Shown one piece after another: positions 39,933-64,000 of a stretch of 64,000 nucleotides of DNA. The notes under the pieces are model-generated. The model was not told where the DNA came from. It searched no databases and saw nothing but the letters and a program-made list of their open reading frames with translations. The translations under genes and the position numbers were made by a program. Source of the stretch: Enterococcus phage VRE9_4; sequence record PP680570.1. One strand, given 5' to 3'. Each line of letters begins with the position of its first letter. Position 1 is the stretch's first letter.

Positions 39933-39970
39933 AATGCCCCCCTTTTCTACCTCTTAATTGAGGTAGTTAC

Positions 39971-40044: not shown

Positions 40045-40101
40045 TTAATTCAGCCCAGGAAAGTGCCAATACTATATTCGCTCTCTTGGGCTTTTTCATA
40101 T

Positions 40102-40130
40102 TTGAAAAAATATATTAATCATGTTATAAT
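40102..40130 (+). promoter_or_regulatory. sigma-A-type promoter (TTGAAA-17-TATAAT) for tRNA-Cys
   Basis: Consensus spacing. CGCTCTCTTGGG motif at 40079-40090 just upstream. Confidence 0.55.
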
Positions 40131-40162
40131 TAATCATAAAGTTAATTAAGAACTTTAAAAAT

Positions 40163-40236
40163 GTCCCTGTCGCCAAGAGGCTTAAGGCTATGGATTGCAA
40201 ACCCATAATACGTGAGTTCGAATCTCACCAGGGACT
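40163..40236 (+). tRNA. tRNA-Cys (anticodon GCA)
   Basis: Acceptor GTCCCTG/CAGGGAC, anticodon stem ATGGA/CCCAT (4 bp plus mismatch) with loop TTGCAAA, T-arm GTGAG-TTCGAAT-CTCAC. Confidence 0.7.
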
Positions 40237-40263
40237 TTTAAATAAAAAGGAGTCGATAATGGA

Positions 40264-40560
40264 ATGGATAAGGAAAAAATTAAAGAATCTTGGAGCTATT
40301 GTTTAACCCGAAGCACTAACATCAGAAAATTAGCTTCTAAAAATGAAGCTATTAGGAAAGATAGTTTAGAAAAAAACATTGCTACTAAAACTGCTTTAGA
40401 AATTTTAAAAGAGCAATTAAATGTTTTAATTGAGATGCTGGAGAAAATTGATTTAGAAGAAGAACTTCTCTTAACTTATCAAGAGAAAGCTGCGGTAGAG
40501 TATCTTATTGAAGTATATGAAAATCTTATTATTGTGAAAGAGGGGGAGCAACTTGACTAA
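40264..40560 (+). CDS. hypothetical protein (98 aa)
   Basis: ORF with AAAGGAG RBS. Confidence 0.45.
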   Translation: MDKEKIKESWSYCLTRSTNIRKLASKNEAIRKDSLEKNIATKTALEILKEQLNVLIEMLEKIDLEEELLLTYQEKAAVEYLIEVYENLIIVKEGEQLD

Positions 40561-41194
40561 ATTTATTACAAGTGATTGGCATTTCTTTCATAATAATGCT
40601 TGTGGTCCAGAAGGATTCATTTCTACTAGAAAAAAGTTTTCCTCTGTAGAAGAGATGAACGATAGTATTATTAAAACTATTAATCAAAAGGTTGGTAGAG
40701 ATGATACCATTATTCATTTAGGAGATATTGGCTTTGGTAAACCTAAAAAATTGTTTGAAACATTAGAAAAAATCAATGGACAAATTATTTTAATTAAAGG
40801 AAATCATGATAGTTCAAAATTATTTAAGTATATTGTAAATAATAATTATCATTATCCATATAGTAACCCTAAAAAACGTAAACAATCTCCTGACCGAGTT
40901 AAATTTTTAGTTGAAGAAGTTGGTTTAAGGGAAAAAATGAATGGTAAGGTTTACTATTTAACTCACTACCCATTTCAGTTAGGAGAACAACGTAAAAATA
41001 TGCGTTCAATTTGTGGACATATTCATGAGCAAATTGCTCCTGAGGCTAATATGATTAACGTAGGTATTGATTCTCCTGAAATTACTTCAAAGATTTCTAA
41101 TTTTGGAGAACCTCTTCTTCTGGAAGATGCAATAGAATTAGTTGATAAAAAATGGGAAAAATGGTATAATACTATAAGATTTTTGGGAAGTTAA
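40553..41194 (+). CDS. metallophosphoesterase (calcineurin-like)
   Basis: N-terminal SDWHFFH motif, GDIGFG, GNHD motifs. 213 aa. Confidence 0.65.
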   Translation: MTKFITSDWHFFHNNACGPEGFISTRKKFSSVEEMNDSIIKTINQKVGRDDTIIHLGDIGFGKPKKLFETLEKINGQIILIKGNHDSSKLFKYIVNNNYHYPYSNPKKRKQSPDRVKFLVEEVGLREKMNGKVYYLTHYPFQLGEQRKNMRSICGHIHEQIAPEANMINVGIDSPEITSKISNFGEPLLLEDAIELVDKKWEKWYNTIRFLGS

Positions 41195-41207
41195 TCTTCC
41201 CTTTTAT

Positions 41208-41297
41208 GGAGCTATGACTGAGAGGTTGAAGGTGACGCACTGCTAATGCGTTAGTCGACATAAAGTTGGCTCATGGGTTCGAATCCCATTAGCTCCT
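41208..41297 (+). tRNA. tRNA-Ser (anticodon GCT)
   Basis: Acceptor GGAGCTA/TAGCTCC, anticodon stem ACGCA/TGCGT with loop CTGCTAA, long variable arm, T-arm ATGGG-TTCGAAT-CCCAT. Preceded by terminator hairpin GGGAAG-TTAATC-TTCCC followed by TTTT. Confidence 0.75.
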
Positions 41298-52252: not shown

Positions 52253-53011
52253 TTAATTTTGAAAACTTGCTTCAAATTCTTTCATATTAATTTCAGCAAT
52301 TTTTTCAGAATGAACTTTTGTAGGGATACGCCAGCACATTCTATTTATTTTTCGATTCATTTTTTTGTGTTGTTTATAGCACCATGCCATTATTGCCACT
52401 TCTATATATACATCTGCCAACCCTGTATGTTCCTCTACAAAATCAGTTGTTTTCATCATCCAATTGTAAGCGACTTCTGCATTAGTTTTTAGGTTACCAG
52501 CTTTTGAATAGTAACCATTTTCAAACGCCCACTTTGGAAAACTTTTCTGCGAAAAAATTGTCTGGCAAGCCATATGCCAAATACAATTTATTTCTAAATT
52601 TTTTCCTACTTCATAAGGGAAGAAAAATGGATAGTTTGTCAATTCTTGCCATGTATTATTTAAAGCTTTGACAAAATCAAAATAAGCGTTATAGGCTGCC
52701 ACCGTTTTGATATTGTATTTTTCTATAATGTTAAGAATAACTCTTCTAACATATCTAAACGGCTTCACTTTCATAATTCCCTGAGAAATTTTTTCACGAT
52801 ACAAAGGCAATTTTGCATAGTAATAAGCGCTACGCATTAAAGCATCATCATCAAAAATTTCTGAAATTGCGAACGAATGTTCTTCATAGATATTCCCTTT
52901 TTTGTCAGCTACAACAAAACCTACATCGTAACATAATGGATTTTTTTCAACATCCCCAGCTGTTTCTACATCTAAAACTAAAATATATTTTTTTCTTTTG
53001 TCAATTTTCAT
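52253..53011 (-). CDS. DEDDh 3'-5' exonuclease (DnaQ-like), copy 1
   Basis: Exo motifs LVLDVETAG (I), AYNAYFDF (II), HTGLADVY (III). Confidence 0.7.
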   Translation of the reverse strand: MKIDKRKKYILVLDVETAGDVEKNPLCYDVGFVVADKKGNIYEEHSFAISEIFDDDALMRSAYYYAKLPLYREKISQGIMKVKPFRYVRRVILNIIEKYNIKTVAAYNAYFDFVKALNNTWQELTNYPFFFPYEVGKNLEINCIWHMACQTIFSQKSFPKWAFENGYYSKAGNLKTNAEVAYNWMMKTTDFVEEHTGLADVYIEVAIMAWCYKQHKKMNRKINRMCWRIPTKVHSEKIAEINMKEFEASFQN

Positions 53012-53093
53012 GCTTACCTTTTTCCACCTTTTTAATAAAATATTTTTTGAAAAAATTAAAGGCTAGGTTTTTACGCCTAGCCCTCGGCGTTTC

Positions 53094-53483
53094 TTAAATA
53101 ATTTTGTAACCCACTTTTTTCTTGTCGCTTGTTGCGATTCCTTTTTCTAGGATTCCTTCTTCTACTAAACCTTTTAGGCGTGGGGTCATTTTTTGTGGAG
53201 TGTAGTCAAACTCTAAAGCTTCATTCACTTCTTGACTTGTGTAAAATGTTTCTGGATCAGCTTCTTCAAAGAACCATTCTTGAATTTTTTGCATGTCTGC
53301 GATTTTTTCTTTGTTTGTCTTGCTTTGGCTAGGTTTGCGGTTAGCGTTACGTTTTTGAGCTTGTTCGCCTTTTTCTACGACAAAATCAATAACTTCTTGC
53401 GGTGCTTTTACATTTGACAAGATACGAGCAACTTCTGCAAATTTTTCAGCTACGACTAGTTTTTCAAATTGTGTTTTTTCCAT
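53094..53483 (-). CDS. small DNA-binding-like protein, family B, copy 2
   Basis: ATG 53483 after AAAAAGGTGGAATTTATC. C-terminal TPQKMTPRLKGLVEEGILEKG...KKVGYKII. Confidence 0.55.
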   Translation of the reverse strand: MEKTQFEKLVVAEKFAEVARILSNVKAPQEVIDFVVEKGEQAQKRNANRKPSQSKTNKEKIADMQKIQEWFFEEADPETFYTSQEVNEALEFDYTPQKMTPRLKGLVEEGILEKGIATSDKKKVGYKII

Positions 53484-53765
53484 GATAAATTCCACCTTTT
53501 TAAAATTTTGTTAGTAAGTTGTTCCCTTACTACTCTTTAAGTATAAACGATTTTCAATTATTTTGCAAGTCTTTTTTTTGCTTTATTAGAAAATTCTCAT
53601 TTAAGCTTAAAGAGTAACAAGTGAACTTCCCTCTTAAGTATATCATACTTTTTTTAACTTTGCAAGTATAAAGTTTATTTATTTTTCAAAGAACTTTTTG
53701 CAATCTCTTTCCTTATCTCTAATACTATTATAGCAAACTTGAAAAGAGATTGCAAGCATAAAGTC

Positions 53766-54392
53766 TTAAATAATTTTGTCAATCGTGATTTTTTTGATTA
53801 GTGTTTCAAGTGTTTGTTTGGTTGGTTCGACTAGTAAACGATAATCAGCATGTTTGAATAAACCGAAATCGCTCGCAGTATCTCCCCACGCCTCTATATA
53901 ACTATATTCGTTTGTGTTTATGTTCCACTGAATGCAATCATCTTTTTGTGATTCTGAAAACATGCCCTTAACCTTTCCAGTGAAACGATCATCTGCTTTC
54001 AAATATTCAGTTGCATAGTATGAACAGCCCAAAAAGTCAGCTAAATGTTTAATTAGAAAATCGCTCGAACCTGTAACAAGAACAACTTCAAAGCCTTGTA
54101 AAATTTTTTCTTTTAAATCGTCCAACGTTTCATACCAATTTTTCCCATTTTCTAAAAATTGAGAAACAAACTCTTTTGCATGCATTTCTTTTTCTGTTTT
54201 CCCTGTTATCTCGTTGCGATAATTTTCGGCAACGGCAACAATCAGACTTTCATTTTTAACATCTTTTTTCCATGCTTTAAAAGAGCCATCATCTTTTATG
54301 ATTCCTTTTTCAATTAAAAAACCCGCATGAGATAAAACAACGCTTTTCCTTGTTAGTGTTCCATCTACATCTGTTAGAATTAAATTTTTCAT
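53766..54392 (-). CDS. HAD-superfamily hydrolase (phosphatase-like)
   Basis: Motif I LTDVDGTLT at the N-terminus. Later VLVTGSS and GD...SD motifs. Confidence 0.65.
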   Translation of the reverse strand: MKNLILTDVDGTLTRKSVVLSHAGFLIEKGIIKDDGSFKAWKKDVKNESLIVAVAENYRNEITGKTEKEMHAKEFVSQFLENGKNWYETLDDLKEKILQGFEVVLVTGSSDFLIKHLADFLGCSYYATEYLKADDRFTGKVKGMFSESQKDDCIQWNINTNEYSYIEAWGDTASDFGLFKHADYRLLVEPTKQTLETLIKKITIDKII

Positions 54393-55209
54393 TTCTTTCG
54401 TCCTCCCTTTATCTTATATACTTATTATAGGGGATAAACGATAAAAAGTAAAGCATTTTACACATTAAAATTATTAAAGTTTAATGAGAATTGTTTCTAA
54501 TTTACACACAATTCACCAGGCGTTATTTTATAATTAAATAACAGCTTTTCTTCGGACACATGTTATTTTATAAACCTGTAAGCGCTTACAAACTGCGTCA
54601 GATCAAGCTTTCAATAGATTTTCAGAAATTTTCATTGTTGTTTCAATAACAGGCAAAAAAATACATGTGAAATAATTCACAAACATAAAATAACACCCAA
54701 GAGCAGAAAAAATAACACACTTTGGCTCGTGCGCACATTCACATTCTCTTGCTCTCTTGGAATGAAAAGGCTGTGAAAGCTTGGTATAATAGGCTTCCTG
54801 GGTTGCGAAAAAATTCACATGCATGGACTTTTGGGATATTAAAATAACATTAAAAAACAATTAAATAACGAGCCAAAAACTTGACAGGGATAAAATAACA
54901 CAGTAAAATGGCGCTCGCCAGCGAGCGGCCGAAAAATAACGTCCTCTATTTGTTATTTTATTCATTTCACAAACTTTAGTTTCAGGATTCTGTTATTTTA
55001 TTTTTGAAAATCATTTTTCAATTTATGAAAATGAAAATGAAAGCTTGATACATCAAGGTTTTGGGAGCCTCGCCCCACAATGTTATTTTATCTTCTTCCT
55101 TTGGGGCTGTTATTTTATTTTATACATTTCATAAACTTTACTTTTAAAATAACACGTATTTCTTTGTGAAAAAATTCACAAGCAAAATTAAAAAAAGATG
55201 AGAAGAATC

Positions 55210-55467
55210 TCATCTTTCAAAAATACGCCCTAAATTATAATCAATGTTATAATTAAAATCTGAATAGTCATTAACAACATCAACAAAGTTGAAAAACTCA
55301 ACTACTATTTTTTCGGCTTCTTCTGGCTCTAAACAACCACTCATAATTTCATCATTCAAAATTAATAAATCTTCAATTTTTCGATATAACACTGAAAACT
55401 CATCTTTATCATATACCTCAACTAAAAAAATTTTTCCTGTAGGCATTTTTACAATTACGTTTCCCAT
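55210..55467 (-). CDS. hypothetical protein (85 aa)
   Basis: Own promoter TTGACT-17-TATACT and RBS on the minus strand (55470-55535). Confidence 0.5.
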   Translation of the reverse strand: MGNVIVKMPTGKIFLVEVYDKDEFSVLYRKIEDLLILNDEIMSGCLEPEEAEKIVVEFFNFVDVVNDYSDFNYNIDYNLGRIFER

Positions 55468-55536
55468 TTAATTCATTCCTTTCCTTTACTATATATATAG
55501 TATAACATATAAGTAAAAGGGAGTCAACCCTTTTAC

Positions 55537-55794
55537 TTAATTTTCTTGATTAAATTTTTCTAATCGTTTTAACAAAATTTTTCCATTTATTTTAGCTATT
55601 AATTTGCCAATTAAACTTTTTGACATAGATAAATTTTTAAATCTGAAATAATAGAAATCACTTCTATTTTCTCCTTTTCTAAATTCATAAGCCAGCTTAC
55701 CATTTAAAATTTGATTGTGGAGAAAAATCTTTACTTCTGGGAAACTCTCAATAATATAATAGTTACCATTGTTTACAAAAACATTCATTTGCAT
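55537..55794 (-). CDS. hypothetical protein (85 aa)
   Basis: Own consensus promoter. See promoter feature 55827..55855. Confidence 0.5.
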   Translation of the reverse strand: MQMNVFVNNGNYYIIESFPEVKIFLHNQILNGKLAYEFRKGENRSDFYYFRFKNLSMSKSLIGKLIAKINGKILLKRLEKFNQEN

Positions 55795-55826
55795 TTAATT
55801 CATTCCTTTCTTAACTTTCTATAATT

Positions 55827-55855
55827 ATTATATCAAGGAAAGGGCTGTTTGTCAA
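55827..55855 (-). promoter_or_regulatory. consensus sigma-A promoter TTGACA-17-TATAAT (minus strand), with the -35 inside a hairpin
   Basis: Minus strand reads AGGGTTGACAAACAGCCCT...TATAAT...AAAGGAATGAATTAAATG. Confidence 0.65.
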
Positions 55856-56154
55856 CCCTTTTCCTCAATTTCTTTGATAATTCTTTTTTCGTCCTCTGGT
55901 AACATTTGAATAACAGTCTTTACTACTATAGTTTTATCTGTTTCATTACAGACATATAAGCGAGAACCGAAAACCCACAATTTAAATTCATTCTCTTCAT
56001 TTTTTGGCGTTTTCTTCCTTACGTTCTTAATTTGAAAATCGTTAAGAATTGCCGAACGAACTTGTCTATTATTCATTTGTTCTTTAGCTACTCTTTCTAA
56101 GTAGCGCTCTTTGGCGTGTTGTGTGATAATAACTTTTTTAGTAAATAAAAGCAT
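55852..56154 (-). CDS. hypothetical protein (100 aa)
   Basis: Own promoter TTGACT-17-TATAAT at 56155-56212 (minus strand). Confidence 0.5.
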   Translation of the reverse strand: MLLFTKKVIITQHAKERYLERVAKEQMNNRQVRSAILNDFQIKNVRKKTPKNEENEFKLWVFGSRLYVCNETDKTIVVKTVIQMLPEDEKRIIKEIEEKG

Positions 56155-56212
56155 TTGTTACAACTCCTTTCTATATTCTTATTATATATTATAAGGGTTG
56201 AAAAGTCAACCC

Positions 56213-56593
56213 TCAACCCTCAAAAAACTTTTTAGTAATTTTTTCCTTTACATTAATTTTTTCAATTTTTTCTTTTGCAGAAAAATCTGTCACGTCAATA
56301 CTGTGGATTCTGTGCTTGTCATTGTCACTAATAAAATTATTCGACCCGAAAAAATTATATACTTCTGTTAATTCATCAGCTTCATTATCCTCAAAAAATT
56401 CGACTAGTTTATAATCATATTCATTTTGAATTTTCCGTTTTCTTTTTGCAACTAAAGAACCTTTATAATATAATTTAACAGTCATATTATTAGTTAATAA
56501 GTTAAATTTCCCAGTGTAAACACAAAGTTCGTCCACTCCAATTAGTTTTACTTTCTTTTCTTCAAATGTTTTAAAAATTTGCATTTCGTTCAC
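56213..56593 (-). CDS. hypothetical protein (126 aa)
   Basis: Own promoter at 56614..56642. Confidence 0.5.
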   Translation of the reverse strand: MNEMQIFKTFEEKKVKLIGVDELCVYTGKFNLLTNNMTVKLYYKGSLVAKRKRKIQNEYDYKLVEFFEDNEADELTEVYNFFGSNNFISDNDKHRIHSIDVTDFSAKEKIEKINVKEKITKKFFEG

Positions 56594-56613
56594 TCCTTAT
56601 TCTTTATATTATT

Positions 56614-56642
56614 ATTATAACAGGTGGTAAAGGGTTTGTCAA
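56614..56642 (-). promoter_or_regulatory. consensus sigma-A promoter TTGACA-17-TATAAT (minus strand)
   Basis: Minus strand reads GGTAAAGGGTTGACAAACCCTTTACC...TATAAT. Confidence 0.65.
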
Positions 56643-57046
56643 CCCTTTACCTTATATTTTTTAGGACTTCCGCCTAAGTCTTCCAGATATCCCTTTTCTT
56701 TCATTTTTTTCAATCTGCTAGGGGTCTGACGGTTTGTGTATTTATCAGCAACTAACAAATGAAAATCTTTATTTTGAAAATACTCTTTGCCACCGAAAGC
56801 AATTTTCACTACATTGTTAAATAAGTCGTCAATTTCATCTTCTGTAATTTTTGCCTTTGCATTTTTAGCTTTCTTGATTTCTTTTTGTTCTTTTTCAAAG
56901 TCTGTTTTCTTGTCACTTTCAAACTTATCAAACTCTCTTAACTCGATAGCTTCGGCAAGATTCAACTCTAATTTTTCAACCATTTCATCAATTAATTTCC
57001 AATCATGAGAAGTAATCTTTTCGCCGTTAGAAAATGTTTCTTGCAT
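56639..57046 (-). CDS. small DNA-binding-like protein (paralog of 21608..21976)
   Basis: ATG 57046 after AAAGGAAAGGAATGG. C-terminal TNRQTPSRLKKMKEKGYLEDLGGSPKKYKVKG. Confidence 0.55.
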   Translation of the reverse strand: MQETFSNGEKITSHDWKLIDEMVEKLELNLAEAIELREFDKFESDKKTDFEKEQKEIKKAKNAKAKITEDEIDDLFNNVVKIAFGGKEYFQNKDFHLLVADKYTNRQTPSRLKKMKEKGYLEDLGGSPKKYKVKG

Positions 57047-57107
57047 ATAACACCATTCCTTTCCTTTACTATATATATAGTATAACATGAAAACTTTTTT
57101 GTGTCAA

Positions 57108-57353
57108 CTATTTTTCACTTTTTTCCCAAAGATAATTATCGCATGCCACAAAAAGACTTTCTAAAAATTTTAAGGCTTCAAAAAAAGGTTTTTGCATATA
57201 GTTTTTATAAATAGGATTTTCGTCAAAAGGCGTTGCCCAATTAGAAACATAATAGACCAATCCTTCCCAATCAGCTTTACCATAAAAATCGCTAATTTGT
57301 TCATCTGTAGAATTTTCTAAAATGGTATTAATATCTTTTTTCATTTTATCCAT
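57108..57353 (-). CDS. hypothetical protein (81 aa)
   Basis: Own promoter TTGATT-17-TATAAT plus AAGGAGGGGA RBS. Confidence 0.5.
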   Translation of the reverse strand: MDKMKKDINTILENSTDEQISDFYGKADWEGLVYYVSNWATPFDENPIYKNYMQKPFFEALKFLESLFVACDNYLWEKSEK

Positions 57354-57579
57354 TTTCGTCCCCTCCTTAACTTTCTATAATAATTATAACAGATAAAACT
57401 AAAAAAATCAAATAATAAATACATGAGTTTTAGGATATTTTTTCTCATTAAACTTTTAGAAAAAATTTTGATTTTTTTCTTGATATAGACCTAATTTTGT
57501 GGTAAAATTTCCGCCCGAAAACGGCAAATTTGCTCACTATTTCACAAGAAAGCTAAATAAAAAAAGGCTTTTCAGCCTT

Positions 57580-57828
57580 TTAAAAATGATTGCCAAGTAT
57601 AGAATACAAACCTCCCCAGCCAATAAAGAAAATATACAAAATACCAAGAAAACCGCTCAAAGTGAAAAATTTACCAGATATAATAATAAAAATAAAATAT
57701 ATAATAGGTATAAAAAACATAGTACCAAACAAAACCGATGATACAATCCCCCAAAAAAATAAGCTTGCTCTTTCTTTGGACTTTCTTTTCTTTCTATTTC
57801 TGATTTCAATTCTATTCATTCTTATCAT
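57580..57828 (-). CDS. membrane protein (82 aa)
   Basis: Basic N-terminus followed by two transmembrane helices. Terminator hairpin at 57563-57584. Confidence 0.5.
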   Translation of the reverse strand: MIRMNRIEIRNRKKRKSKERASLFFWGIVSSVLFGTMFFIPIIYFIFIIISGKFFTLSGFLGILYIFFIGWGGLYSILGNHF

Positions 57829-57869
57829 TCCTTTCTATAGTTATATTATAGCAAATAAAAAGAGTTGTG

Positions 57870-58591
57870 TCAACTCTTTTTATTATTTAAATTTTCTTCG
57901 TTTACAATTCGCCACGCTTGAGGATTAATAGAATAAGCATGAATAGGAATTTCTTTTTCTTGACTTAATAGACAATGTAAAATTTTTGTTTCATCTATGC
58001 TATCCTGTAAAGCAGTATGCTCTTCAATGTAACCTGTATCATTAAACAAAAATTTGTAAGTTGCTTCTGCACCAGTTTGATAATTTCCTTTTTCTGTCAA
58101 AAGGTTGTGAGTTTTTGCGAACTCTTTATATTCTGGCGTATTTAATACAGTATAAGCGGCAACTGGATAAATATCAATCAAAAAGAAATTATCAAAGAAA
58201 TCAAAATCCTTCCCTGAAAAAAAGAAATGAGTTTTTGCAATTACACGAGTGTCAAAACCTAAGTTATAAGCACCAATGTAAGCAACATTATATTTTTTAC
58301 AGTCTTTTTTAAGTTGTCCGATAATGTTCGCCCACTTGCTAACAATGATTCTTTTTTCAAGTAATTTTGTAAAATATATTTTTCCATCAACTACATTTTC
58401 ATCAATCAAGAAAGCACGTTTTTTATTCAACGCTTGAAATTTGAATTGTTCTACCATGTAAGAACGTTCTACTAAAATATTTCCCTTTTTGTCTGAAATA
58501 GCCCAACCAATATCGAAAACTGATTGATAAGGCATTCCCTCGCCTTCTTTTGTTGTTTCAGTATCTAAAATCAAAAATGTTTCTTGCATGT
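57870..58591 (-). CDS. DEDDh 3'-5' exonuclease (DnaQ-like), copy 2
   Basis: Motifs LILDTETT, AYNLGFDT, HTALQDSI. ATG 58591 after AAAAGGTGGAAAATTAC. Confidence 0.7.
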
Positions 58592-58682
58592 AATTTTCCA
58601 CCTTTTCAATAAATTTATTTGTTCCTTAACTACTATTTAAGTATAACAAAAGGGCTTGAGCTTGTCAAGCCCTTTTACTAAC

Positions 58683-59096
58683 TTATTTCAATTTGTAAGC
58701 TACTTTTTTATCCTTTACAACTTTTTCAAATTCTTCATTATCAACTAATGGTTTCATGATTGCCGTCAATTTTTGAGGTGTAGCACCAACAAGCCCAATT
58801 AATTCAGAAATTTCGTGCAATGTTAAGGCTGTTTCTGGTTCTAAGTCAAGAAATGCTTTTCGTACTTTATCCATATTTTCGGCTTTTTCTTTTGCTGTTT
58901 TGCTTACGCCTTTTTTACCACGTTTTGCCTTGTCTTGTTTCACTTGTTGAGTGTGCATAGCTTTCAATTTGTCTAATAATTCAATATCAACTTTTTCAAA
59001 TAAGTCAGTATTTAAAAATGTTTTGTCCTCGATTGCTTTGCTTACTACTTTAACCGCTAATTCCAATGCTTGTGCTTTTGTAATTTGTTTTTCCAT
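58683..59096 (-). CDS. small DNA-binding-like protein, family B, copy 3
   Basis: ATG 59096 after an RBS/leader identical to copy 2 (CATGATAAATTCCACCTTTTTAAAAT on the plus strand). C-terminal TPQKLTAIMKPLVDNE...KKVAYKLK. Confidence 0.55.
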   Translation of the reverse strand: MEKQITKAQALELAVKVVSKAIEDKTFLNTDLFEKVDIELLDKLKAMHTQQVKQDKAKRGKKGVSKTAKEKAENMDKVRKAFLDLEPETALTLHEISELIGLVGATPQKLTAIMKPLVDNEEFEKVVKDKKVAYKLK

Positions 59097-59258
59097 GATA
59101 AATTCCACCTTTTTAAAATATTTTTTTGTAACAATTTCTTATTACATTCTTAGTATAAAACATTTTGATTTGTTTGTCAAGTGTTTTATACTAATTTCTA
59201 ACAAGAAATTTTTGTTGTTTTCTTTATACTCTTATTATAGAGTATTGAGAAAGGCTTG

Positions 59259-59462
59259 TCAAGCCTTTTCCCAATTTTCTTTTAAGAAAGTAACAACGCT
59301 ATAACTTGTAATAGTTGTTAAGGCAATAAGTAACAAGCTTTGAATAGAGAAGAAACCAGTGTACAAAATAGCTTGATAAGTAAAGTAGAATGGTACTAAG
59401 ATACCTCCAGCGACTAAAATTCCTACAAAAACAATTAATAATACTAATTCAGATAATTTCAT
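59259..59462 (-). CDS. small membrane protein (67 aa)
   Basis: Two transmembrane helices. Own promoter. Confidence 0.5.
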   Translation of the reverse strand: MKLSELVLLIVFVGILVAGGILVPFYFTYQAILYTGFFSIQSLLLIALTTITSYSVVTFLKENWEKA

Positions 59463-59535
59463 TTTAAAACTTCCTTTCCTTTTCTATATATTAAGTATAT
59501 CATTGTTAAAATGTTTTGTCAATACTTTTTGTTAA

Positions 59536-59699
59536 ATAATTTCAAATTTTCTATTTTTAAATTCTTCTTTGAAGTCTTGAACGGCTTGTTCATAAGTATC
59601 ACCTTCAACAAAAATTTCTTCAATTTTAGGATAACCACTATCCAAACTAATTTCATCTAAGAATTTAACAAGTAAAATATATTTATTCATTTTTTTCAT
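59536..59699 (-). CDS. small hypothetical protein (54 aa)
   Basis: ATG 59699 after GGAAAGGAATG. Promoter TTGACA-17-TATAAT at 59700-59760. Below the ORF-track cutoff. Confidence 0.4.
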
Positions 59700-60146
59700 T
59701 CCTTTCCTTATCTTGATTCTATTATAACACGACTTAATTCATCTGTCAACACTTTTATCATTTTATCAGCTTTTTCTTTTCGGTCAATTTCTTTTTCTCT
59801 TTGGTTCTTTCTAGCAATCAATTTCAATCTTAAATATTTATTTTTCATTTTAAATCGTTCCTTTCTATAATTCTATATTAGCAAACCTCAATGCTTTTGT
59901 CAAGCATTTTATTAAATTTATTTTTTTATTTTATTTTTTGTTCCCTCCTTAACTTTCTATAATTATTATAGCATAGACCAAGAGGAAAGACAATAATAAA
60001 ACACTGTAATTTTAATTAGAATTTTCTCATTTTGTATGAAAGATGTAAGCGCTTTCATTTTATGGTTTCCTCCCTGTTTGCGGGGCGTTCTCACCTCTCC
60101 TTATATTTATATTATAGCAGAAAAAAATAAGCCCGTCAAGGCTTAT

Positions 60147-60557
60147 TTATAAGTTTTTCCATTTTTTTCTTTGTTCTCGATAGGTTTTTGCTGTTTGCTC
60201 TTCAGTATCATGATGAGCAACCATGTTTGCGCCGATGTTAGTTCCTTGAATTGTTTTTGTTTGTTTGATTTGTGCTAATTCATCTAAGTTTTTTTGCGAG
60301 TATTTTTCAACAGTTTTATATAAACTAGCCTCATTTAAAATTTTAATAACTTTTTTTCGTTTTAAGAAGAAAGTTTTGTATTCTTCTTCCTCTAATCTGA
60401 TAAGCTGAATTATTAAATTATCATCAAACCAATCCAACCTTACCTTTAAAACATTATACCCAAAGCATTTTTCAGGACTTACCTCGATCAATTTTACATC
60501 GTCTTCTTTTTTATAATGATATTTTTTGATATATTCTAAATCATTCATTCTTGTCAC
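60147..60557 (-). CDS. hypothetical protein (136 aa)
   Basis: Promoter TTGACT-17-TATAAT plus AAGGAGTG RBS. Confidence 0.5.
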   Translation of the reverse strand: MTRMNDLEYIKKYHYKKEDDVKLIEVSPEKCFGYNVLKVRLDWFDDNLIIQLIRLEEEEYKTFFLKRKKVIKILNEASLYKTVEKYSQKNLDELAQIKQTKTIQGTNIGANMVAHHDTEEQTAKTYREQRKKWKNL

Positions 60558-60721
60558 TCCTTATTCTTTATATATTTATTATAGCATGAGTTTTGGGACA
60601 AGTCAACAGAAAAACGCCAAAATAAATAAAAAAAATTTTCTATGAAAGCGCTTTCATTTTATGGTTTCCTCCCCCCTTACAAGTTCAGTATAACAAAAAA
60701 ATAGGGGTTTGTCAACCCCTA

Positions 60722-61144
60722 TTACTTAAATTCATTATATAAATTTTCTAATTCAATTTCTTTCTTTTTCTGTTTCTCTCTATCTTCCACACAATAAAAC
60801 ATATCTCTTACAAAAGGTAAGTCAATCAATCTGAGATTTCCTTTTTTATATTCTGATAACATTAATAAATTTTCTTTTTCTGTATCTTCTTCCCACTTAT
60901 CTGTATAATGATATTTTTCAGAATAAAGGATTTCTACTTTCTTCTTTTTTGAAAATATTTTTTTCTTTTCTCTAAAATTCATTAGTGAGATTTTAAATAA
61001 TCCTGTTCTCCATTGAGAAATAAAGACATTTTCAATTATAAGAAATTTATATCCCTCTATCTCTTCATGTAATTCTACTATCGCAGTTTTTTCATCTAAT
61101 TTCTTGATATATTCTTTTTGTTCTACTGTAAGCATTTCATTCAC
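60722..61144 (-). CDS. hypothetical protein (140 aa)
   Basis: Own promoter and AAGGAGTG RBS. Confidence 0.5.
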   Translation of the reverse strand: MNEMLTVEQKEYIKKLDEKTAIVELHEEIEGYKFLIIENVFISQWRTGLFKISLMNFREKKKIFSKKKKVEILYSEKYHYTDKWEEDTEKENLLMLSEYKKGNLRLIDLPFVRDMFYCVEDREKQKKKEIELENLYNEFK

Positions 61145-61196
61145 TCCTTATTCTTTATATTATTATCATAACAGAAAGGGATAATCCTGTCAAGGA

Positions 61197-61523
61197 TTAT
61201 CTTCTTAAAATTTTTCCAACAAACACATCTTGTCTTATTTGTTCAGCTTGTTCAAGATATATTAATTCAAATGAATCTTTATAGATACGATGATTTTTTA
61301 TATCTAAAGTCTTTTTTGTTGAGAAAAAAGCATCTAAAGCATCTTTTGAAGCCTCTGTTATATCTTCATCATAGAAATCTCCTTTCAATTGTTCTTTTAT
61401 ATATTCTGCAAAATCTTTATAAAGCGTTGTAATTAAAAGATGATGATTGCGTAAACGTTTTTCAGTTCTTTCAACCTCTTTCTTCATTTCATTAATTTTT
61501 TCTTTCATTTCTTTTTCTAGCAT
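61197..61523 (-). CDS. hypothetical coiled-coil protein (108 aa)
   Basis: Own promoter and AAGGAGTG RBS. Confidence 0.5.
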   Translation of the reverse strand: MLEKEMKEKINEMKKEVERTEKRLRNHHLLITTLYKDFAEYIKEQLKGDFYDEDITEASKDALDAFFSTKKTLDIKNHRIYKDSFELIYLEQAEQIRQDVFVGKILRR

Positions 61524-61691
61524 ATTTAGTCACTCCTTATTCTTTATAATATAATTATATCATAGTTATAGGATAAGTCAATAGAAAAGCGCCAAAAAGT
61601 TTAAAAATTTTTTTCAGTGAAAGCGCTTACATTTCTTTCCTCTCTTGGTACAATATTATTATAGCACAAAAAAAGGACTTTTGCAAGTCCT

Positions 61692-62177
61692 TTATACTAA
61701 TTCTTTTCCGATTACACTTCTTTTTAATACGTCAATTTTTTCTTTCATTTCTTCACTATCTAAAAATTTATTCAAGTTTTCTTTATTAAAATTCTTAGAT
61801 AATTCAAGAGCCAAAATTTCGCTATCTGTCAATGGATAGTTATGATTGTTTATTCTTCCGCCAACTACTGAAAAGCATACCTGTTCGTTAGTATCGAAAT
61901 CTATTAAATATATATCTAAAATTGAAACTTGAAGCCATGAAATAGCAGAATCAGCGTTTCTTACAATTTTTTTAGAAACTTCTTGATTTGCTCGAAACAT
62001 TATTACATCAGTAACTCGATTATTTATTGTTGTTACTGTTGTTTTTTTATCCATTAATTTTGGGTCATGATTGTATATTCTTCTTCTATACCATGCCTCA
62101 CTAATACTATAACCAATCATAAACAACATAAGACCTATTAAGACAGCTAAACAAATACTACCAATAACTATTCTCAT
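61692..62177 (-). CDS. membrane-anchored protein (161 aa)
   Basis: N-terminal transmembrane helix MRIVIGSICLAVLIGLMLFMIGY. Confidence 0.5.
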   Translation of the reverse strand: MRIVIGSICLAVLIGLMLFMIGYSISEAWYRRRIYNHDPKLMDKKTTVTTINNRVTDVIMFRANQEVSKKIVRNADSAISWLQVSILDIYLIDFDTNEQVCFSVVGGRINNHNYPLTDSEILALELSKNFNKENLNKFLDSEEMKEKIDVLKRSVIGKELV

Positions 62178-62248
62178 TTTAAAATCATTCCTTTCTTTTA
62201 ACTATAATTAGTATAACATGGTTAGAGGTTGATGTCAACCCCTAACAT

Positions 62249-62608
62249 CTATCTTTTTCTTTCCCAGTAGTATTTTTCAAGAAAATCACAAAAATCTGTT
62301 TTTTCATCAATTTTCCATACTATTTTAATTTCATTCGTATTATTGAGCAAACAAATTCTTTCAGTTATAAAGCCGAGAAAGTCATGAAATTTATTTGTGT
62401 CACTTGCTCGCTGTTTATTTCTAAAGAACTTTTTGGGAAGTTCTACATAACTACATCTTTCAGGTAACCAGCTAGTATAAGCTTTTAAATATAAACTTTT
62501 TTTGTTTTCATTCCAAAACATTTCTTCATTATATTGTGACTTTGTTATTACTTGTATAGGATATTTCTCATTAGTTTTTAAATTAACTATTTCAATAATC
62601 TCTATCAT
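62249..62608 (-). CDS. hypothetical protein (119 aa)
   Basis: Own promoter: TGTCAACCCC hairpin at about 62225. Confidence 0.5.
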   Translation of the reverse strand: MIEIIEIVNLKTNEKYPIQVITKSQYNEEMFWNENKKSLYLKAYTSWLPERCSYVELPKKFFRNKQRASDTNKFHDFLGFITERICLLNNTNEIKIVWKIDEKTDFCDFLEKYYWERKR

Positions 62609-62659
62609 ATATTATCATTCCTTTCTATATATCTAATATACCATAGTTTCGGGGTGGTG

Positions 62660-62896
62660 TCAATAAATATTTTCATTTAACCATTTAATAAAATCATTAT
62701 ACACTTGATGAATGTCAAATCTATTTTGGAATTGCATATTAAAATCATATTTATTTCGTAACCATTCACTAAGTGCATAGCTATCAACTAAAGGGCTAGT
62801 AAGCTCTTTCTTATATTTAGATAGGTACTTTCGTTCTAGTTCATATTCTAAAGCAAATTCTAAAATCTCGATAGCTTCAAGAGTTTCATTATTCAT
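62660..62896 (-). CDS. hypothetical protein (78 aa)
   Basis: Last gene before the repeat-rich non-coding end of the window. Confidence 0.5.
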   Translation of the reverse strand: MNNETLEAIEILEFALEYELERKYLSKYKKELTSPLVDSYALSEWLRNKYDFNMQFQNRFDIHQVYNDFIKWLNENIY

Positions 62897-63303
62897 TTTG
62901 AATACCTCTTTTCAATAGGTTTTAGGGCTATTCATCTAACCCCTATAAATAGTATAATATATAAAACCCTAATTGTCAAATGATTTTTAACATTAGACAA
63001 AATATTTTTATATACATTATGTATGTATATATGCATTCGATAACAGATGTTATTTTAATAGACTATCGAGAGATGTAAGCGCTTACAAAAGATTTACTTA
63101 AACAGATGAATTGAAAGCGCTTTATTTTACGTTTTAAGAGCTTTTCATATTATTTGGCATAATTATCTATTAAGCATTATAAAACCCAAGAGAAGAGCAA
63201 AGAAGTGTATTGTGGGCGCTATTATTAACTTTTATTAAGGTGTTAGAATAAATAGTCTTATATAAAATAACACTTATCAGTTATTATAACAAGTGTTATG
63301 TTT

Positions 63304-63527
63304 GGTGGCAGAGATGTGATGAGCTAATACATTGTGAAACATTTCACACATGTACAATCATTCATATAATAATTTATTCATATGTATGAATGAACAGATG
63401 TACATATATTCATATGTGGCAGAGATGTGATGAGCTAATACATTGTGAAACATTTCACACATGTACAATCATTCATATAATAATTTATTCATATGTATGA
63501 ATGAACAGATGTACATATATTCATATG
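63304..63527. repeat. 111-bp tandem direct repeat (2 near-identical units) with degenerate additional units downstream
   Basis: Units start GTGGCAGAGATGTGATGAGC at 63304 and 63415 and are identical through ...TTCATATG. Partial copies begin at about 63767 and 63877. Confidence 0.8.
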
Positions 63528-64000
63528 TACTCACTGCCAGTCTGTGAGCATTGTCACAGATGTAAGCGCTTACAACTCATTGACGCAAGGTGTCAAGCAA
63601 AGATACTTGGCGCACATATGTTCGGCTAGCTCCCAGCAACTTGATGAATAACAAAGGTTATTTAATTTTATAGTTCGGCATTTAAAATAACAAGTGTTAT
63701 TTAAACATACTTAAATACTTGAACAGATGTACATATGAACATATATTCATATATTGTGGCAGTAGGTACAGATGGACTAGACCAATCGTAACCCTAAACG
63801 ATTGTGAAATATTTCACAAGGATTCCACTCAACGTTAGAAATTAGTTGATATTATTAAATAACAAGTGTTATTTATGGTGGCAGCAACATAGACGAGTGT
63901 TATTTAATTAATAAGGGAGTTAGTGGTAAGGGATGCAGAGGTCGTTATTTAATTAGGTCAATAAGTTTTTACAATAGTAATAAAAGGCTTGTTATCATTA

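Follow-up and report, generated by a model that had tools for sequence, protein, structure and literature searches.

The closest known kind of element to the one described here is the PeSL (promoter-early stem-loop), the composite promoter/terminator cassette of the T4-like phages. A PeSL consists of a strong sigma-70 promoter and a stem-loop which can overlap the −35 element, and these cassettes act as terminators in vivo and bring about the shuffling of ORFans (PMC2839356, PMC4122927). A comparable arrangement was found in Enterococcus phage VRE9_4 (PP680570.1), of which a stretch of 64,000 nucleotides, here called the window, was analyzed. This phage is a member of the EF1/H1/VRE9 group of enterococcal phages and is 93–96% identical to phages H1, VRE9_1–3 and EF1/EF5. 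Phages of this type form a group apart from the phiEF24C/EFDG1 myoviruses and possibly represent a new family together with phAss-1 (PMC6435515, PMC10607447). A preliminary description of the region had proposed kinship with the Herelleviridae and a likeness to the modules of SPO1-like phages. The first was not borne out, as the records of the H1, VRE9 and EF1/EF5 relatives carry the taxonomy Caudoviricetes only, and Pfam and PHROG searches with the 18 products of the region gave no link to SPO1 module genes. The PeSL cassettes are the better comparison.

On the minus strand, between positions 55210 and 62896, 18 small ORFs (46–239 aa) occur together with 23 sigma-A-type promoter-like sites, each ORF having its own site 54–84 nt 5' of the start codon, or a tandem pair. 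The earlier count of at least 15 small genes with individual promoters is confirmed. Nineteen of the 23 sites match TTGACA-N-TATAAT at 11–12 of 12 positions (P55527, with 10/12 and an extended −10, is included), and TG at −15/−14 is present in 18. The 17-bp spacer, first described as exact throughout, was found in 22, the exception being 61581 with 16. Minus-strand sites of 11–12/12 number 17 in the interval 56–64 kb vs 0–3 per 4-kb bin in the rest of the window. Sigma-A-like promoters (TTGAAA-17-TGnTATAAT) are also present over the remainder of the window, so that a host-type promoter alone does not establish the array as the earliest class. The host-takeover appearance noted before does hold in that a dense array of small ORFans with sigma-A consensus promoters is what would be expected of an early region.

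In a typical cassette, the final codons of the preceding gene, often Lys-rich and A-rich, make up the 5' arm of a GC-cored hairpin with the TTGACA at its apex. The 17-bp spacer is composed of the hairpin's 3' arm, T-rich sequence and the TG belonging to the extended −10. Next come TATAAT or TATACT and a conserved leader of ~25 nt (..TATAGAAAG..AGGA..), which contains the ribosome-binding site and precedes the start codon. The reported leader conservation was confirmed, with the families AATTATAGAAAGTTAAGGAGG, ATATAAAGAATAAGGAGTGA, ATATATAGTAAAGGAAAGGAATG and TATAGAAAGGAATGA. Contrary to what had been stated, the hairpin is not placed immediately behind the upstream stop, since its 5' arm is coding; the stop TGA lies within TTGACA itself at five junctions (62663, 59262, 57873, 56642 and 55855).

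The −35 is enclosed by a hairpin at 13/23 promoters, corresponding to 12/17 gene junctions, and not in nearly every gap or for every gene as previously thought; with five of 17 junctions lacking one, insulation is not universal. The plus-strand example quoted in the preliminary description (~58650–58672) is correct, and four of its eleven listed examples (57041–57107, 57354–57440, 59463–59520 and 59700–59760) have no −35 hairpin, the second lying 3' of a separate stand-alone terminator (57562–57581). The array hairpins have ΔG values of −11 to −19 kcal/mol and z-scores of −2.3 to −6.2 against shuffles of the flanks. They are specific to the array, being found at 11/19 strong promoters there vs 1/30 elsewhere in the window (Fisher p = 2.5e-5). 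A clean T-run follows only about six of them (61686, 60715, 60139, 58668, 57873 and 55527) and is interrupted or missing at the others, so that many of the 13 may terminate inefficiently. That the same DNA could serve as terminator or attenuator hairpin and as −35 element is plausible.

Read 5' to 3' on the minus strand, to which all cassette and ORF coordinates below refer, the array begins with P62979 (62897–62979; TTGACA at 62979–62974, spacer 17, TATACT at 62956–62951, long leader), which has neither a hairpin nor a gene upstream. It precedes an ORF of 78 aa (62660–62896; phrog_36571, unknown function), the stop of which falls within the −35 of P62663 (62609–62663; TTGACA-17-TGgTATATT and leader TATAGAAAGGAATGA, no hairpin). 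After an ORF of 119 aa without family match (62249–62608), the −35 of P62238 (62178–62246; −10 TGtTATACT) is enclosed by hairpin TTAGGGGTTG-ACAT-CAACCTCTAA (62246–62221; −15 to −16 kcal/mol, no T-run). The following ORF of 161 aa (61692–62177; phrog_27977, unknown function) has an N-terminal hydrophobic segment. A tandem pair comes next: P61686 (P1; 61658–61697; −10 TGcTATAAT), with TTGCAA in the loop of a canonical terminator-like hairpin (AAAGGACTTGCAAAAGTCCTTT and TTTTTG), and P61581 (P2; 61524–61581; TTGACT-16-TGaTATAAT and leader ATATTATAAAGAATAAGGAGTGA, no hairpin). Between an ORF of 108 aa (61197–61523) and one of 137 aa (60722–61135), neither with a family match, lies P61193 (61136–61205; −10 TGtTATGAT), the −35 of which is enclosed by GATAATCC-TTGACA-GGATTATC (61201–61180) with a moderate T-run. 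P60715 (P1; 60687–60723; −10 TGtTATACT) has the canonical terminator-like hairpin AATAGGGGTT-GACA-AACCCCTATT with TTTTTG, its loop being part of the −35, and P60606 (P2; 60549–60606) shows TTGACT-17-TGcTATAAT and a leader without hairpin, ahead of an ORF of 133 aa with no family match (60147–60548).

Further along, P60139 (P1; 60111–60148; −10 TGcTATAAT) carries the canonical terminator-like hairpin AAATAAGCC-TTGACG-GGCTTATTT with TTTTCT. An orphan cassette without ORF, P59993 (59940–59993; TTGTCT-17-TGcTATAAT and AATTATAGAAAGTTAAGGAGGG), is followed by P59903 (59849–59908; −10 TGcTAATAT), where a weak hairpin (ATGCTT-GACAA-AAGCAT, −6.9 kcal/mol) encloses the −35. The next ORF, of 46 aa (59708–59848; phrog_36286), contains P59749 (59691–59749; perfect TTGACA-17-TGtTATAAT, no hairpin) in its 3' end. 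An ORF of 52 aa, or 55 aa with a start at 59699 (59532–59690; phrog_35080), precedes P59522 (59463–59522; TTGACA-17-TGaTATACT, no hairpin) and a hydrophobic ORF of 67 aa (59259–59462; phrog_36393), which ends in the −35 of the orphan P59262 (59234–59275). There, hairpin GGGAAAAGGCTT-GAC-AAGCCTTTCTC (−14.5 kcal/mol) encloses a perfect TTGACA-17-TATAAT. P59180 (59097–59180; TTGACA-17-TATACT, long leader) leads to an ORF of 137 aa (58683–59096; phrog_30233), a paralogue of 53094–53495. P58668 (58590–58677; −10 TGtTATACT), identical in 5/5 genomes compared, has its −35 across the 5' arm and loop of AAAAGGGCTTGA-CAAGC-TCAAGCCCTTTT (−18 kcal/mol, with T-run). The largest product follows, of 239 aa (57870–58589; phrog_20187), a paralogue of 52253–53011 that distant relatives also keep in their arrays; it shows DEDDh exonuclease motifs (DxE, NxxFD, HxxxxD) that are invariant and has a weak PHROG match to a polymerase-exonuclease family. 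The other PHROG matches of array products are to families of unknown function, and none of the 18 matched Pfam above the cut-off.

In the last part, the terminator-like hairpin AATAAAAAGAGTTG-ACA-CAACTCTTTTTATT of P57873 (57820–57884) encloses a perfect TTGACA-17-TGcTATAAT. A membrane-like ORF of 79 aa (57580–57819), divergent or missing in relatives, ends at a stand-alone intrinsic-terminator-like hairpin (57562–57581; AAAAGGCTGAAAAGCCTTTT and TTTATTT). P57411 (57354–57411; TTGATT-17-TGtTATAAT and TATTATAGAAAGTTAAGGAGGG, no hairpin) precedes an ORF of 81 aa without family match that is missing in EF1 (57108–57353). P57107 (57047–57107; TTGACA-17-TGtTATACT, no hairpin) begins 1 nt past the upstream stop, and its ORF of 135 aa (56639–57046; phrog_20625) terminates within the −35 of P56642 (56585–56651), where GGTAAAGGGTT-GACA-AACCCTTTACC (−17.8 kcal/mol, without clean T-run) encloses a perfect TTGACA-17-TGtTATAAT. 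Beyond an ORF of 123 aa (56213–56584; phrog_38179), P56209 (56155–56222; −10 TATAAT) bears TTGACT at the apex of GAGGGTTGAGGGTTGAC-TTTTCAACCCTT (−15 kcal/mol). An ORF of 100 aa (55852–56154; phrog_31205) likewise has its stop within the next −35, that of P55855 (55795–55868; leader AATTATAGAAAGTTAAGAAAGG), in which GGAAAAGGGTTG-ACAAA-CAGCCCTTTCC (−17 to −19 kcal/mol) encloses a perfect TTGACA-17-TGaTATAAT. The next ORF, of 85 aa (55537–55794), has no family match, is missing in VRE9_3 and lies elsewhere in VRE9_1. At P55527 (55468–55539; −10 TGtTATACT) the loop of AAGTAAAAGGG-TTGACT-CCCTTTTACTT (−15.7 kcal/mol) is the whole −35. The last ORF, also of 85 aa (55210–55467), is replaced in H1, and a stand-alone terminator-like hairpin (55193–55218; GAAAGATGAGATTCTTCTCATCTTTT and TTTAATTTT) closes the array.

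The stems of these hairpins are unrelated to one another in sequence and the loop register of the −35 differs (GACA, GAC, ACA, TGAC, TTGACT), which argues for selection on structure and against copies of one motif. Compensatory double changes, scored among orthologues at 93–96% identity, maintain the pairing in related phages: two pairs were found in the 57873 hairpin, one in that of 56642 (A:T to G:C, in H1), one in that of 60715 (T:A to A:T, in H1/VRE9_1) and one in that of 62238.

As with the PeSLs, breakpoints of gene gain and loss among five relatives were located in the cassettes. The cassettes account for 22% of the DNA and contain 21 of the 31 distinct homology-block ends (p = 7e-8). 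Purifying selection alone, through survivorship, would also produce an enrichment in intergenic DNA, and since the cassettes are nearly all the intergenic DNA of the array (22.1% of 26.4%), the enrichment by itself cannot separate this from cassette-mediated recombination. Stronger evidence for the latter than this statistic comes from hybrid cassettes and duplicated flanks. VRE9_3 has lost gene 55537–55794 and carries a hybrid of P55855 (left) and P55527 (right) with the crossover in AAAAGGGTTGAC, in the −35/hairpin. Gene 62249–62608 was lost in EF1 and VRE9_3 by cassette-to-cassette recombination, the crossover of the hybrid lying in the −10 and P62663 being the donor half. Insertions in H1 are flanked by duplicated leader sequence of 24 and 45 nt, and an unrelated 56-aa ORF takes the place of 55210–55467 in that phage, swapped exactly from start codon to stop codon. 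The orphan promoters can be read in the same way. P59262 precedes a 57-aa gene in EF1, which it would drive there and which is deleted in VRE9_4, so that the supposed tandem promoters 59262/59180 are the scar of a gene still present in relatives; P59993 is the scar of a gene still in VRE9_1 and VRE9_3, where this part is 135 nt longer.

Cassettes of the same design are also present in distant relatives from metagenomes. The exact pattern GGGTTGACAAACCC-N9-TGNTATAMT was found at 57 IMG/VR loci, with a chance expectation well below 1 by our own estimate, and many of these loci are small-ORF arrays with 15–27 strong promoters per 12 kb. Five encode phrog_20187, the family of the 239-aa array gene, and have the TATAGAAAG leader. 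The stop TGA within TTGACA is also found in distant relatives.

It should also be noted that perfect CcpA-cre-like and Rex-like palindromes cluster inside and around the array. Cre-like palindromes lie between P61686 and P61581 (61618–61631; TGTAAGCGCTTTCA), within a repeated unit of ~100 nt consisting of P1, SD, mini-ORF/cre and P2 (60643–60656; TGAAAGCGCTTTCA), and at 60044–60057 (TGAAAGCGCTTACA). A downstream non-coding control region (54393–55192) has eleven AAATAACA 8-mers, one cre-like palindrome (54577–54590) and three Rex-like boxes (54665, 54803, 55164). The upstream one (62980–64000), extending ~300 nt past the window in relatives, contains cre-like palindromes at 63074 and 63561, Rex-like boxes at 63332, 63443 and 63802, AATAACANNTGTTATT palindromes and a perfect tandem duplication of 111 bp (63305–63526). 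Beyond the array, relatives have ~1.3 kb of repeat-rich non-coding DNA, after which there is no sequence end but a divergent operon for a 620-aa protein, a further protein annotated 'sigma factor', PhoH and terminase. Nothing was found to indicate that the array lies in a terminal redundancy, a setting to which the preliminary description had likened it. The ends of related records fall at unrelated places: that of H1 at the equivalent of ~21.4 kb of the window, that of VRE9 in the terminase region, a few kb beyond the genes after the array. In EF1 and EF5 the array has different coordinates and opposite strands.

The mechanism suggested by these sequences is that described for the PeSL cassettes of T4-like phages. 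On entry of the DNA into the cell, host sigma-A RNA polymerase would fire from all array promoters, and the hairpin in the transcript of the upstream gene would terminate transcription at the ~6 U-run sites, or attenuate it and cap the 3' end at the rest. The dose of each gene would thus be set mainly by its own promoter, with no build-up of read-through along the array. Placing the −35 in the loop would let terminator and promoter share ~30 bp, giving a junction of only ~55–60 bp. The cassettes resemble one another and may thereby provide portable homology for recombination, by which single genes could be added, deleted, replaced or reordered. Matching the PeSL type, the array is a good new example of it rather than a new principle, and probably represents the hyperplastic early-gene block of a virulent EF1/H1/VRE9-type phage, in which each ORFan gene has a composite regulatory cassette.

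Eighteen ORFs encoding proteins of 46–239 aa lie on the minus strand of the VRE9_4 window between 55210 and 62896, forming a compact array which is a real and well-structured feature of the sequence. A consensus scan found 107 promoter-like matches in the 52–64 kb region, against 64 ± 7 in shuffled sequence, with nearly all of the strongest located on the minus strand of the array. When the entire window was scanned, 17 minus-strand sites with 11–12 of 12 consensus matches were found in 56–64 kb, compared to 0–3 per 4-kb bin elsewhere. For the 23 promoter sites tabulated for the array, the spacer was 17 bp in 22 cases, the −35 element was TTGACA in 15 and the −10 element was TATAAT or TATACT in 19. 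An extended −10 (TG at −15/−14) was present in 18, and 19 sites had either 11–12 of 12 consensus matches or 10 of 12 together with the extended −10. Each of the 18 genes has a promoter site of its own, with the start codon 54–84 nt from the −35 element; three genes are preceded by tandem pairs and two further sites are orphans. Leader sequences group into a small number of near-identical families with cores of TATAGAAAG or TATAAAGAATAAGGAG, and a Shine-Dalgarno (SD) sequence of AGGA or GGAG is found 6–10 nt upstream of the start codons. The stop codon of the upstream gene lies at −3 to +15 nt relative to the −35 element, and at five junctions its TGA forms bases 2–4 of TTGACA. The unit of −35, −10 and leader is here referred to as a cassette and named after its −35 position (e.g., P55855).

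A hairpin was found to enclose the −35 element at 13 of these 23 sites, corresponding to 12 of the 17 gene-to-gene junctions, with the other ten sites having none. The enclosing hairpins range from −11 to −19 kcal/mol, apart from a weaker example at 59903 (−6.9 kcal/mol), with z-scores of −2.3 to −6.2 against shuffles of the flanks. The loop consists of part of the −35 hexamer (GACA, GAC, ACA or TGAC) or of an entire TTGACT, its register shifting by 1–3 nt among cassettes whose stem sequences are unrelated. The 5′ arm is coding sequence of the upstream gene, and the 17-bp spacer is taken up by the 3′ arm and T-run followed by the extended −10's TG, so that approximately 55–60 bp suffices per junction. 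Six of the hairpins (61686, 60715, 60139, 58668, 57873, and 55527) have a clean T-run and the look of a canonical intrinsic terminator, with the T-run being interrupted or missing in the remainder. Strong promoters with a −35 hairpin account for 11 of 19 in the array and 1 of 30 in the rest of the window (Fisher p = 2.5e-5); this contrast, together with the shuffles, rules out a chance origin. Resemblance to the N4-type hairpin promoters or single-stranded DNA promoters (Frpo) was also considered, and was rejected because the hairpin leaves out the −10 element and spacer, and the fit of the elements is to the duplex sigma-A consensus. A search of the entire window against Rfam at the gathering threshold returned tRNAs only. 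A preliminary description of this region had reported a dense series of small genes with sigma-A promoters and a hairpin in nearly every gap. The former is borne out by the 18 ORFs, the 23 sites and the enrichment on the array strand seen in the promoter scan. The latter stands for the 12 junctions with a hairpin, but is too strong as a general statement, since four of the eleven gaps offered as examples have none.

The hairpins were compared with those of five sequences each 93–96% identical to the window, namely Enterococcus phages H1 (locus L001), VRE9_1 (L002), EF1 (L003) and VRE9_3 (L004) and a metagenomic contig (L040). Across these five loci and the window, the −35 element was enclosed by a hairpin in 37 of 76 distinct array-strand promoter contexts. 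Compensatory changes of U:A to G:C and A:U to G:C were seen among orthologues of the 57873 stem, with changes of A:T to G:C in the 56642 stem of H1, and of T:A to A:T and G:T to G:C among relatives in the 60715 and 62238 stems, respectively. This covariation supports a nucleic-acid structure, as judged from the alignments, over an operator for a sequence-specific protein. Centering of inverted repeats on a promoter element is characteristic of operators, and the −35 palindromes could in principle be bound by a dimeric repressor or shut-off protein. However, the stems differ wholly from one cassette to another while the loop moves in register, and orthologous stems vary by compensatory pairs in the manner of a nucleic-acid structure and not of a protein-recognition sequence. 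The operator hypothesis was rejected because the stems are unrelated and covary, and its probability is regarded as negligible.

Cassettes of this kind are already known from the T4-like phages as the promoter-early stem-loop (PeSL), described for RB49/phi1, T4/PST and KVP40/nt-1 (Arbiol et al., 2010, PMC2839356; Comeau et al., 2014, PMC4122927). The PeSL unit consists of a near-consensus sigma-70 promoter, a stem-loop which can overlap the −35 element and an SD sequence with start codon, and it borders ORFans in hyperplastic regions. Its promoter and terminator activities and its modular shuffling, including through mini-circles, were demonstrated experimentally (PMC2839356; PMC4122927); for the VRE9_4 cassettes, promoter and terminator activity is predicted from sequence. 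All of the features by which a PeSL can be recognized at sequence level were found in the array. Units of ~60–100 bp lie between small ORFans, each with a TTGACA-N17-TATAAT-type promoter, a stable stem-loop and an SD with start codon; the upstream stop codon is in or adjoining the unit; and the units are clustered within an ORFan-rich, hyperplastic region. A stem-loop over the −35 element represents one of the five PeSL subclasses, and it is within the cassettes that indels and replacements among close relatives have their junctions, some of the crossovers being in the loop. There are also differences. VRE9_4 infects a Gram-positive Enterococcus and is a member of the EF1/H1 group, a lineage that is unrelated to the T4-like phages and unclassified. 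The −35-in-apex arrangement dominates the array (12 of 17 junctions), whereas the stem-loops of phi1/RB49 commonly lie between −35 and −10 or over −10. The extended −10 (TGn) and the conserved TATAGAAAG leader are typical of VRE9_4, and five junctions have the TGA stop inside TTGACA. As the original PeSLs were defined in T4-like myoviruses and VRE9_4 is an EF1/H1-type Enterococcus phage, the cassettes are classed as PeSL-like and not as T4-family PeSLs. The array is best described, at the level of sequence, as a set of PeSL-like cassettes in a new host and a new phage lineage.

The gene content of the array differs among the six genomes despite their 93–96% identity. The ends of homology blocks were found in cassettes in 21 of 31 distinct cases, with cassettes making up 22% of the region (binomial p = 7e-8). 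The prediction of the PeSL model that indel junctions are located in cassettes holds in these alignments, although part of the enrichment is owed to selection against disrupting genes, since little intergenic DNA lies outside the cassettes. VRE9_3 lacks the gene at 55537–55794 and has in its place a hybrid cassette, the left part from P55855 and the right from P55527, with the crossover in the common AAAAGGGTTGAC (5′ arm and −35). The same gene occupies another array position in VRE9_1. In EF1 and VRE9_3 the gene at 62249–62608 is absent, leaving a P62663/P62238 hybrid with its crossover in the −10 element. H1 carries two extra genes bordered by duplicated leader sequence (24 and 45 nt), and its last array gene (55210–55467 in VRE9_4) has been swapped precisely from start to stop codon. 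The "two tandem promoters" of 59262/59180 mark the loss of a gene for a 57-aa protein kept in EF1, and the orphan cassette at 59993 that of a gene kept in VRE9_1 and VRE9_3.

These crossovers also bear on the possibility that the inverted repeats act as DNA, either as cruciforms or hairpins rendering the promoters sensitive to supercoiling or to the state of the incoming DNA, or as dedicated recombination sites, loosely comparable to the attC sites of integrons, at which cassettes are excised and inserted as mini-circles. One crossover lies at the hairpin apex and −35 element, a crossover in the loop and mini-circles were detected for the RB49 PeSL (PMC2839356), and the stems of 10–14 bp with short loops and AT-rich flanks would be suited to such a role. 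However, the second mapped crossover is in the −10 element, outside the hairpin, and the H1 insertions are bordered by duplicated leader sequence, both of which fit ordinary homologous recombination across shared cassette sequence. In addition, no recombinase gene was recognized among the array genes with Pfam and PHROGs, and extrusion of a cruciform would abolish the duplex −35 element. A function as DNA structures is accordingly thought to be quite improbable.

An alternative at the RNA level is that the hairpins are not terminators and instead serve as 3′-end, processing or stability elements of polycistronic early transcripts, shielding cistrons from 3′-to-5′ exonucleases or marking RNase sites, with the overlap of the −35 element being a mere by-product of compaction. 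Seven of the 13 hairpins lack a good T-run, the several junctions without a hairpin imply tolerance of read-through, and compensatory conservation would suit any role at the RNA level. On the other hand, six hairpins are textbook intrinsic terminators with a GC stem followed by 7–8 T in 10 positions, the array also contains stand-alone terminators of this type (57562–57581 and 55193–55218), and PeSL stem-loops terminate efficiently in vivo (PMC2839356). This alternative is considered unlikely. With the cassettes acting as combined promoters and terminators, it is expected that the host sigma-A holoenzyme would initiate at all of them right after DNA entry, with the hairpins carrying a U-run ending upstream transcripts within the spacer of the next promoter. 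Hairpins without a U-run may attenuate transcription or cap the 3′ end. Gene dosage would then be set mainly by each gene's own promoter, and the similarity among cassettes would provide homology for the gain, loss and reordering of genes. A proximal UP element may also be provided by the A-rich 5′ arm, which spans −45 to −38.

None of the 18 array proteins had a Pfam match above the cut-off, and all of their PHROGs matches were to families of unknown function, save for one weak polymerase-exonuclease match with a 239-aa protein (57870–58589, phrog_20187). By these searches the array products are ORFans, with a functional hint for the 239-aa protein alone. The DxE, NxxFD, and HxxxxD motifs of this protein are invariant in an alignment with five distant homologs, which is the signature of a DEDDh 3′–5′ exonuclease-like protein, and the weak PHROGs and Foldseek matches agree with this assignment. 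A sequence search of the PDB returned nothing for the single protein and one marginal match for a seven-sequence profile. The structural model, built from an alignment of two paralogs, was poor (pLDDT 46), and the hits obtained with it in Foldseek, namely exonuclease domains of family-B polymerases and QIP, had a TM of ~0.33 and are weakly supportive. It should also be noted that the gene is part of a duplicated minus-strand pair, 57870–59096 and 52253–53495, in which a 137/133-aa protein (phrog_30233/19455) is followed by a 239/252-aa member of phrog_20187; the paralogs are ~30% identical and that of the 239-aa protein is at 52253–53011. The exonuclease-like phrog_20187 family was also found in distant metagenomic arrays (loci L005, L007, L020, L031, and L058). 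Also in this part of the window (53766–54392, minus strand) is a gene for a HAD-family hydrolase (Pfam). Its EF1 ortholog carries the label "diguanylate cyclase/phosphodiesterase with PAS/PAC sensor," apparently in error.

The array shares with the early or pre-early promoter clusters of T4 and T5 the placement of very strong host-type promoters, used straight after injection in those phages, before small non-essential genes. T4 also has a DEDDh exonuclease, DexA, among such genes, comparable to the phrog_20187 protein of the array. The lineage and host are different, however, and nothing in VRE9_4 points to promoter tuning of the ADP-ribosylation type or to first-step-transfer DNA.

The region matches only Enterococcus phages H1, VRE9_1–3 and EF1/EF5, with genomes of 138–142 kb. 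With an average GC content of ~30%, the window encodes, outside the array, ribonucleotide reductases of classes I and III, an amidase and at least eight tRNAs. All close relatives are classified no further than Caudoviricetes; EF1 and EF5 have been grouped separately from phages such as phiEF24C and EFDG1 (PMC6435515), and they may share a new family with phAss-1 (PMC10607447). The early, host-takeover-like character and the dual-use hairpins suggested in the preliminary description are reasonable. Its assignment of the phage to the Herelleviridae is unsupported, as the relatives are filed as Caudoviricetes only and are treated in the literature as a separate group.

That description had further suggested that the array is an SPO1-type host-takeover module within the long terminal redundancy of a Herelleviridae-like genome, with the window ending near a physical end. 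The SPO1 module (Stewart et al., 1998, as cited in PMC12282133) and the Herelleviridae long terminal repeat (LTR) similarly contain ~20 small genes of mostly unknown function with content varying among relatives, many strong sigma-A early promoters with strong ribosome-binding sites, and a presumed first transcription by unmodified host RNA polymerase (ICTV profile, PMC7414437; PMC12282133). The dense, strong sigma-A promoters before small genes were found in the array. The LTR genes of CKA15, a member of the Herelleviridae, have their peak at 5 min, and gains and losses of genes are concentrated toward the genome ends (PMC12282133). In addition, ~1.3 kb of repeat-rich non-coding DNA follows the array, and the stored stretch of one IMG/VR relative (L019) stops within it. 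Against this, the relatives of VRE9_4 are not filed under the Herelleviridae, and searches with Pfam and PHROGs linked none of the 18 products to SPO1 gp37–gp60 or the LTR "tre" genes. No account of −35-in-hairpin cassettes was found in those SPO1-related papers that were consulted, Stewart et al. (1998) not among them. In H1, VRE9_1 and EF1, moreover, the sequence runs past the array and the ~1.3 kb of non-coding DNA into a divergent operon, with genes for a 620-aa protein, a protein annotated as "sigma factor" (VRE9_1), PhoH and terminase in the relatives, the terminase gene being reached in H1. The H1 ortholog of the "sigma factor" had no Pfam match, sigma domains included, and this annotation is accordingly not relied on. 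The record breaks differ among relatives and none is at the edge of the array, and no second copy of the array is present within the 64-kb window. A literature search for genome papers on H1, VRE9 and EF1 found no account of their termini or transcription. A location in a terminal redundancy is on balance doubtful. The metagenomic relative whose sequence stops in the array (L019/L040; IMGVR_UViG_3300045988_176702, 133,799 bp) is 94–96% identical; its stored stretch ends at the equivalent of ~55.7 kb of the window and the contig is 4–8 kb shorter than the isolate genomes. The array being repeat-rich and variable, this stop may reflect an assembly break.

Palindromes resembling binding sites of host regulators were also detected in and around the array. 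Six perfect 14-bp palindromes, TGWAAGCGCTTWCA, were found, all within 54577–63574, compared with an expectation of 0.8 even when one mismatch is permitted. They occur as TGTAAGCGCTTACA or TGAAAGCGCTTTCA at 54577–54590, 60044–60057, 60643–60656, 61618–61631, 63074–63087 and 63561–63574, and are identical to an ideal cre site, with TGWAANCGNTNWCA here being taken as the cre consensus of CcpA. A repeated unit of ~100 nt lies ahead of three array genes and comprises a hairpin-promoter (P1), a strong SD with a mini-ORF, a perfect cre-like site and a TTGACT promoter (P2), and the three further palindromes lie in two non-coding regions bracketing the array. These sites are kept in the five close relatives only (H1, VRE9_1, VRE9_3, EF1, and L040) and are absent from the distant metagenomic loci. 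The same two bracketing regions hold six palindromes of the form TTGTGAA-N4-TTCACAA, resembling a Rex box (also CRP/FNR-like), at 54665–54682, 54803–54820, 55164–55181, 63332–63349, 63443–63460 and 63802–63819, found nowhere else in the window and against 0.85 expected. They are kept in the close relatives and were also found in two metagenomic loci (L017 and L020). Another perfect Rex-like box is present in H1 (L001, 17161–17178), inside the first plus-strand ORF (H1_81) past the position of the window end.

It is tentatively suggested, as possible more than probable, that the early region is wired to the global metabolic regulators CcpA and Rex of the host and/or that the cassettes are mobilized as mini-circles; a phage-encoded protein binding the cre-like sites is equally possible. 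If CcpA and Rex bind, the phage would tune its early host-takeover genes to the carbon and NADH/NAD+ state of the cell. Bound CcpA could roadblock the P1 transcripts, or alternatively the sites could titrate the regulators. If the cassettes form mini-circles, this would amount to an integron-like gene-cassette economy in Gram-positive phages.

Other repeats were noted in the same part of the window. The 8-mer AAATAACA has 24 of its 27 copies at 50–56 kb and 62–64 kb, 22 of them clustered in three non-coding regions (51.7–52.2, 54.5–55.15, and 63.0–63.9 kb), often as TAAAATAACA and sometimes within the palindrome AATAACANNTGTTATT. Possible roles are as iterons or as targets of a phage DNA-binding protein. 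A perfect 111-bp tandem duplication (63305–63526) containing a Rex-like box and ATGAACAGATGTACATATATTCATAT repeats is present as a single copy in H1.

A second uniform promoter class, TTGAAA-17-TGnTATAAT, was found scattered in the nucleotide-metabolism and tRNA part of the window, at 6266, 10992, 18439 and 21223 on the minus strand and at 35610, 36112, 36706, 37389, 40102, 48644 and 50340 on the plus strand. The array promoters belong to the separate TTGACA class, and the TTGAAA sites may constitute a different temporal or strength class. The only −35 element with a strong hairpin outside the array belongs to the minus-strand site at 6266 (hairpin promoter 6232–6290, AAAATAAGGAATTTC..TTGAAATTCCTTATTT, −16 kcal/mol), upstream of the gene for the large subunit of ribonucleotide reductase. 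Eight tRNA genes (Glu, Pro, Asn, Leu, two Ser, Phe, and Cys) were predicted by ARAGORN on the plus strand at 36754–41297, several with a TTGAAA-class promoter upstream, and an additional tRNA was identified with Rfam at 36754–36829.

The exact pattern GGGTTGACAAACCC-N9-TGNTATAMT was found in 57 IMG/VR loci, some of them near-duplicates, so that the independent lineages are fewer than 57; with 21.5 specified bases, far fewer than one chance match is expected by our estimate. Small-ORF arrays (median ~85 aa) make up many of these loci, with 15–27 strong promoters per 12 kb on one strand, and a portion of their promoters have the −35 element within a hairpin. Five loci with a GC content of 34–43% encode phrog_20187 proteins and share the stop-in-−35 feature and the TATAGAAAG leader, with different stems. 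Megablast of two of the metagenomic arrays (L008 and L058) against known phages gave no match. This recurrence, with the features shared, indicates a habit of the lineage and not a local accident; by sequence comparison the cassette design would be lineage-wide and possibly wider still.

The array genes are listed only as hypothetical proteins in the H1, VRE9 and EF1 records, and recognition of the cassettes offers a practical route to annotating the early genes and transcription units of these therapy-relevant phages. The cassettes predict the sites at which accessory genes are gained and lost in EF1-group genomes, and may serve synthetic biology in Gram-positive bacteria as natural promoter/terminator parts of compact size. 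The PeSL idea, in which one short unit ends one gene, starts the next and offers portable homology, would be extended beyond the T4-like phages of Gram-negative bacteria to large Enterococcus phages of the gut, which form an unrelated lineage that has received little study, and to the metagenomic relatives of these phages. Should the cre-like and Rex-like sites prove functional, they would offer a concrete, testable instance in which a virulent phage reads the metabolic state of its host.
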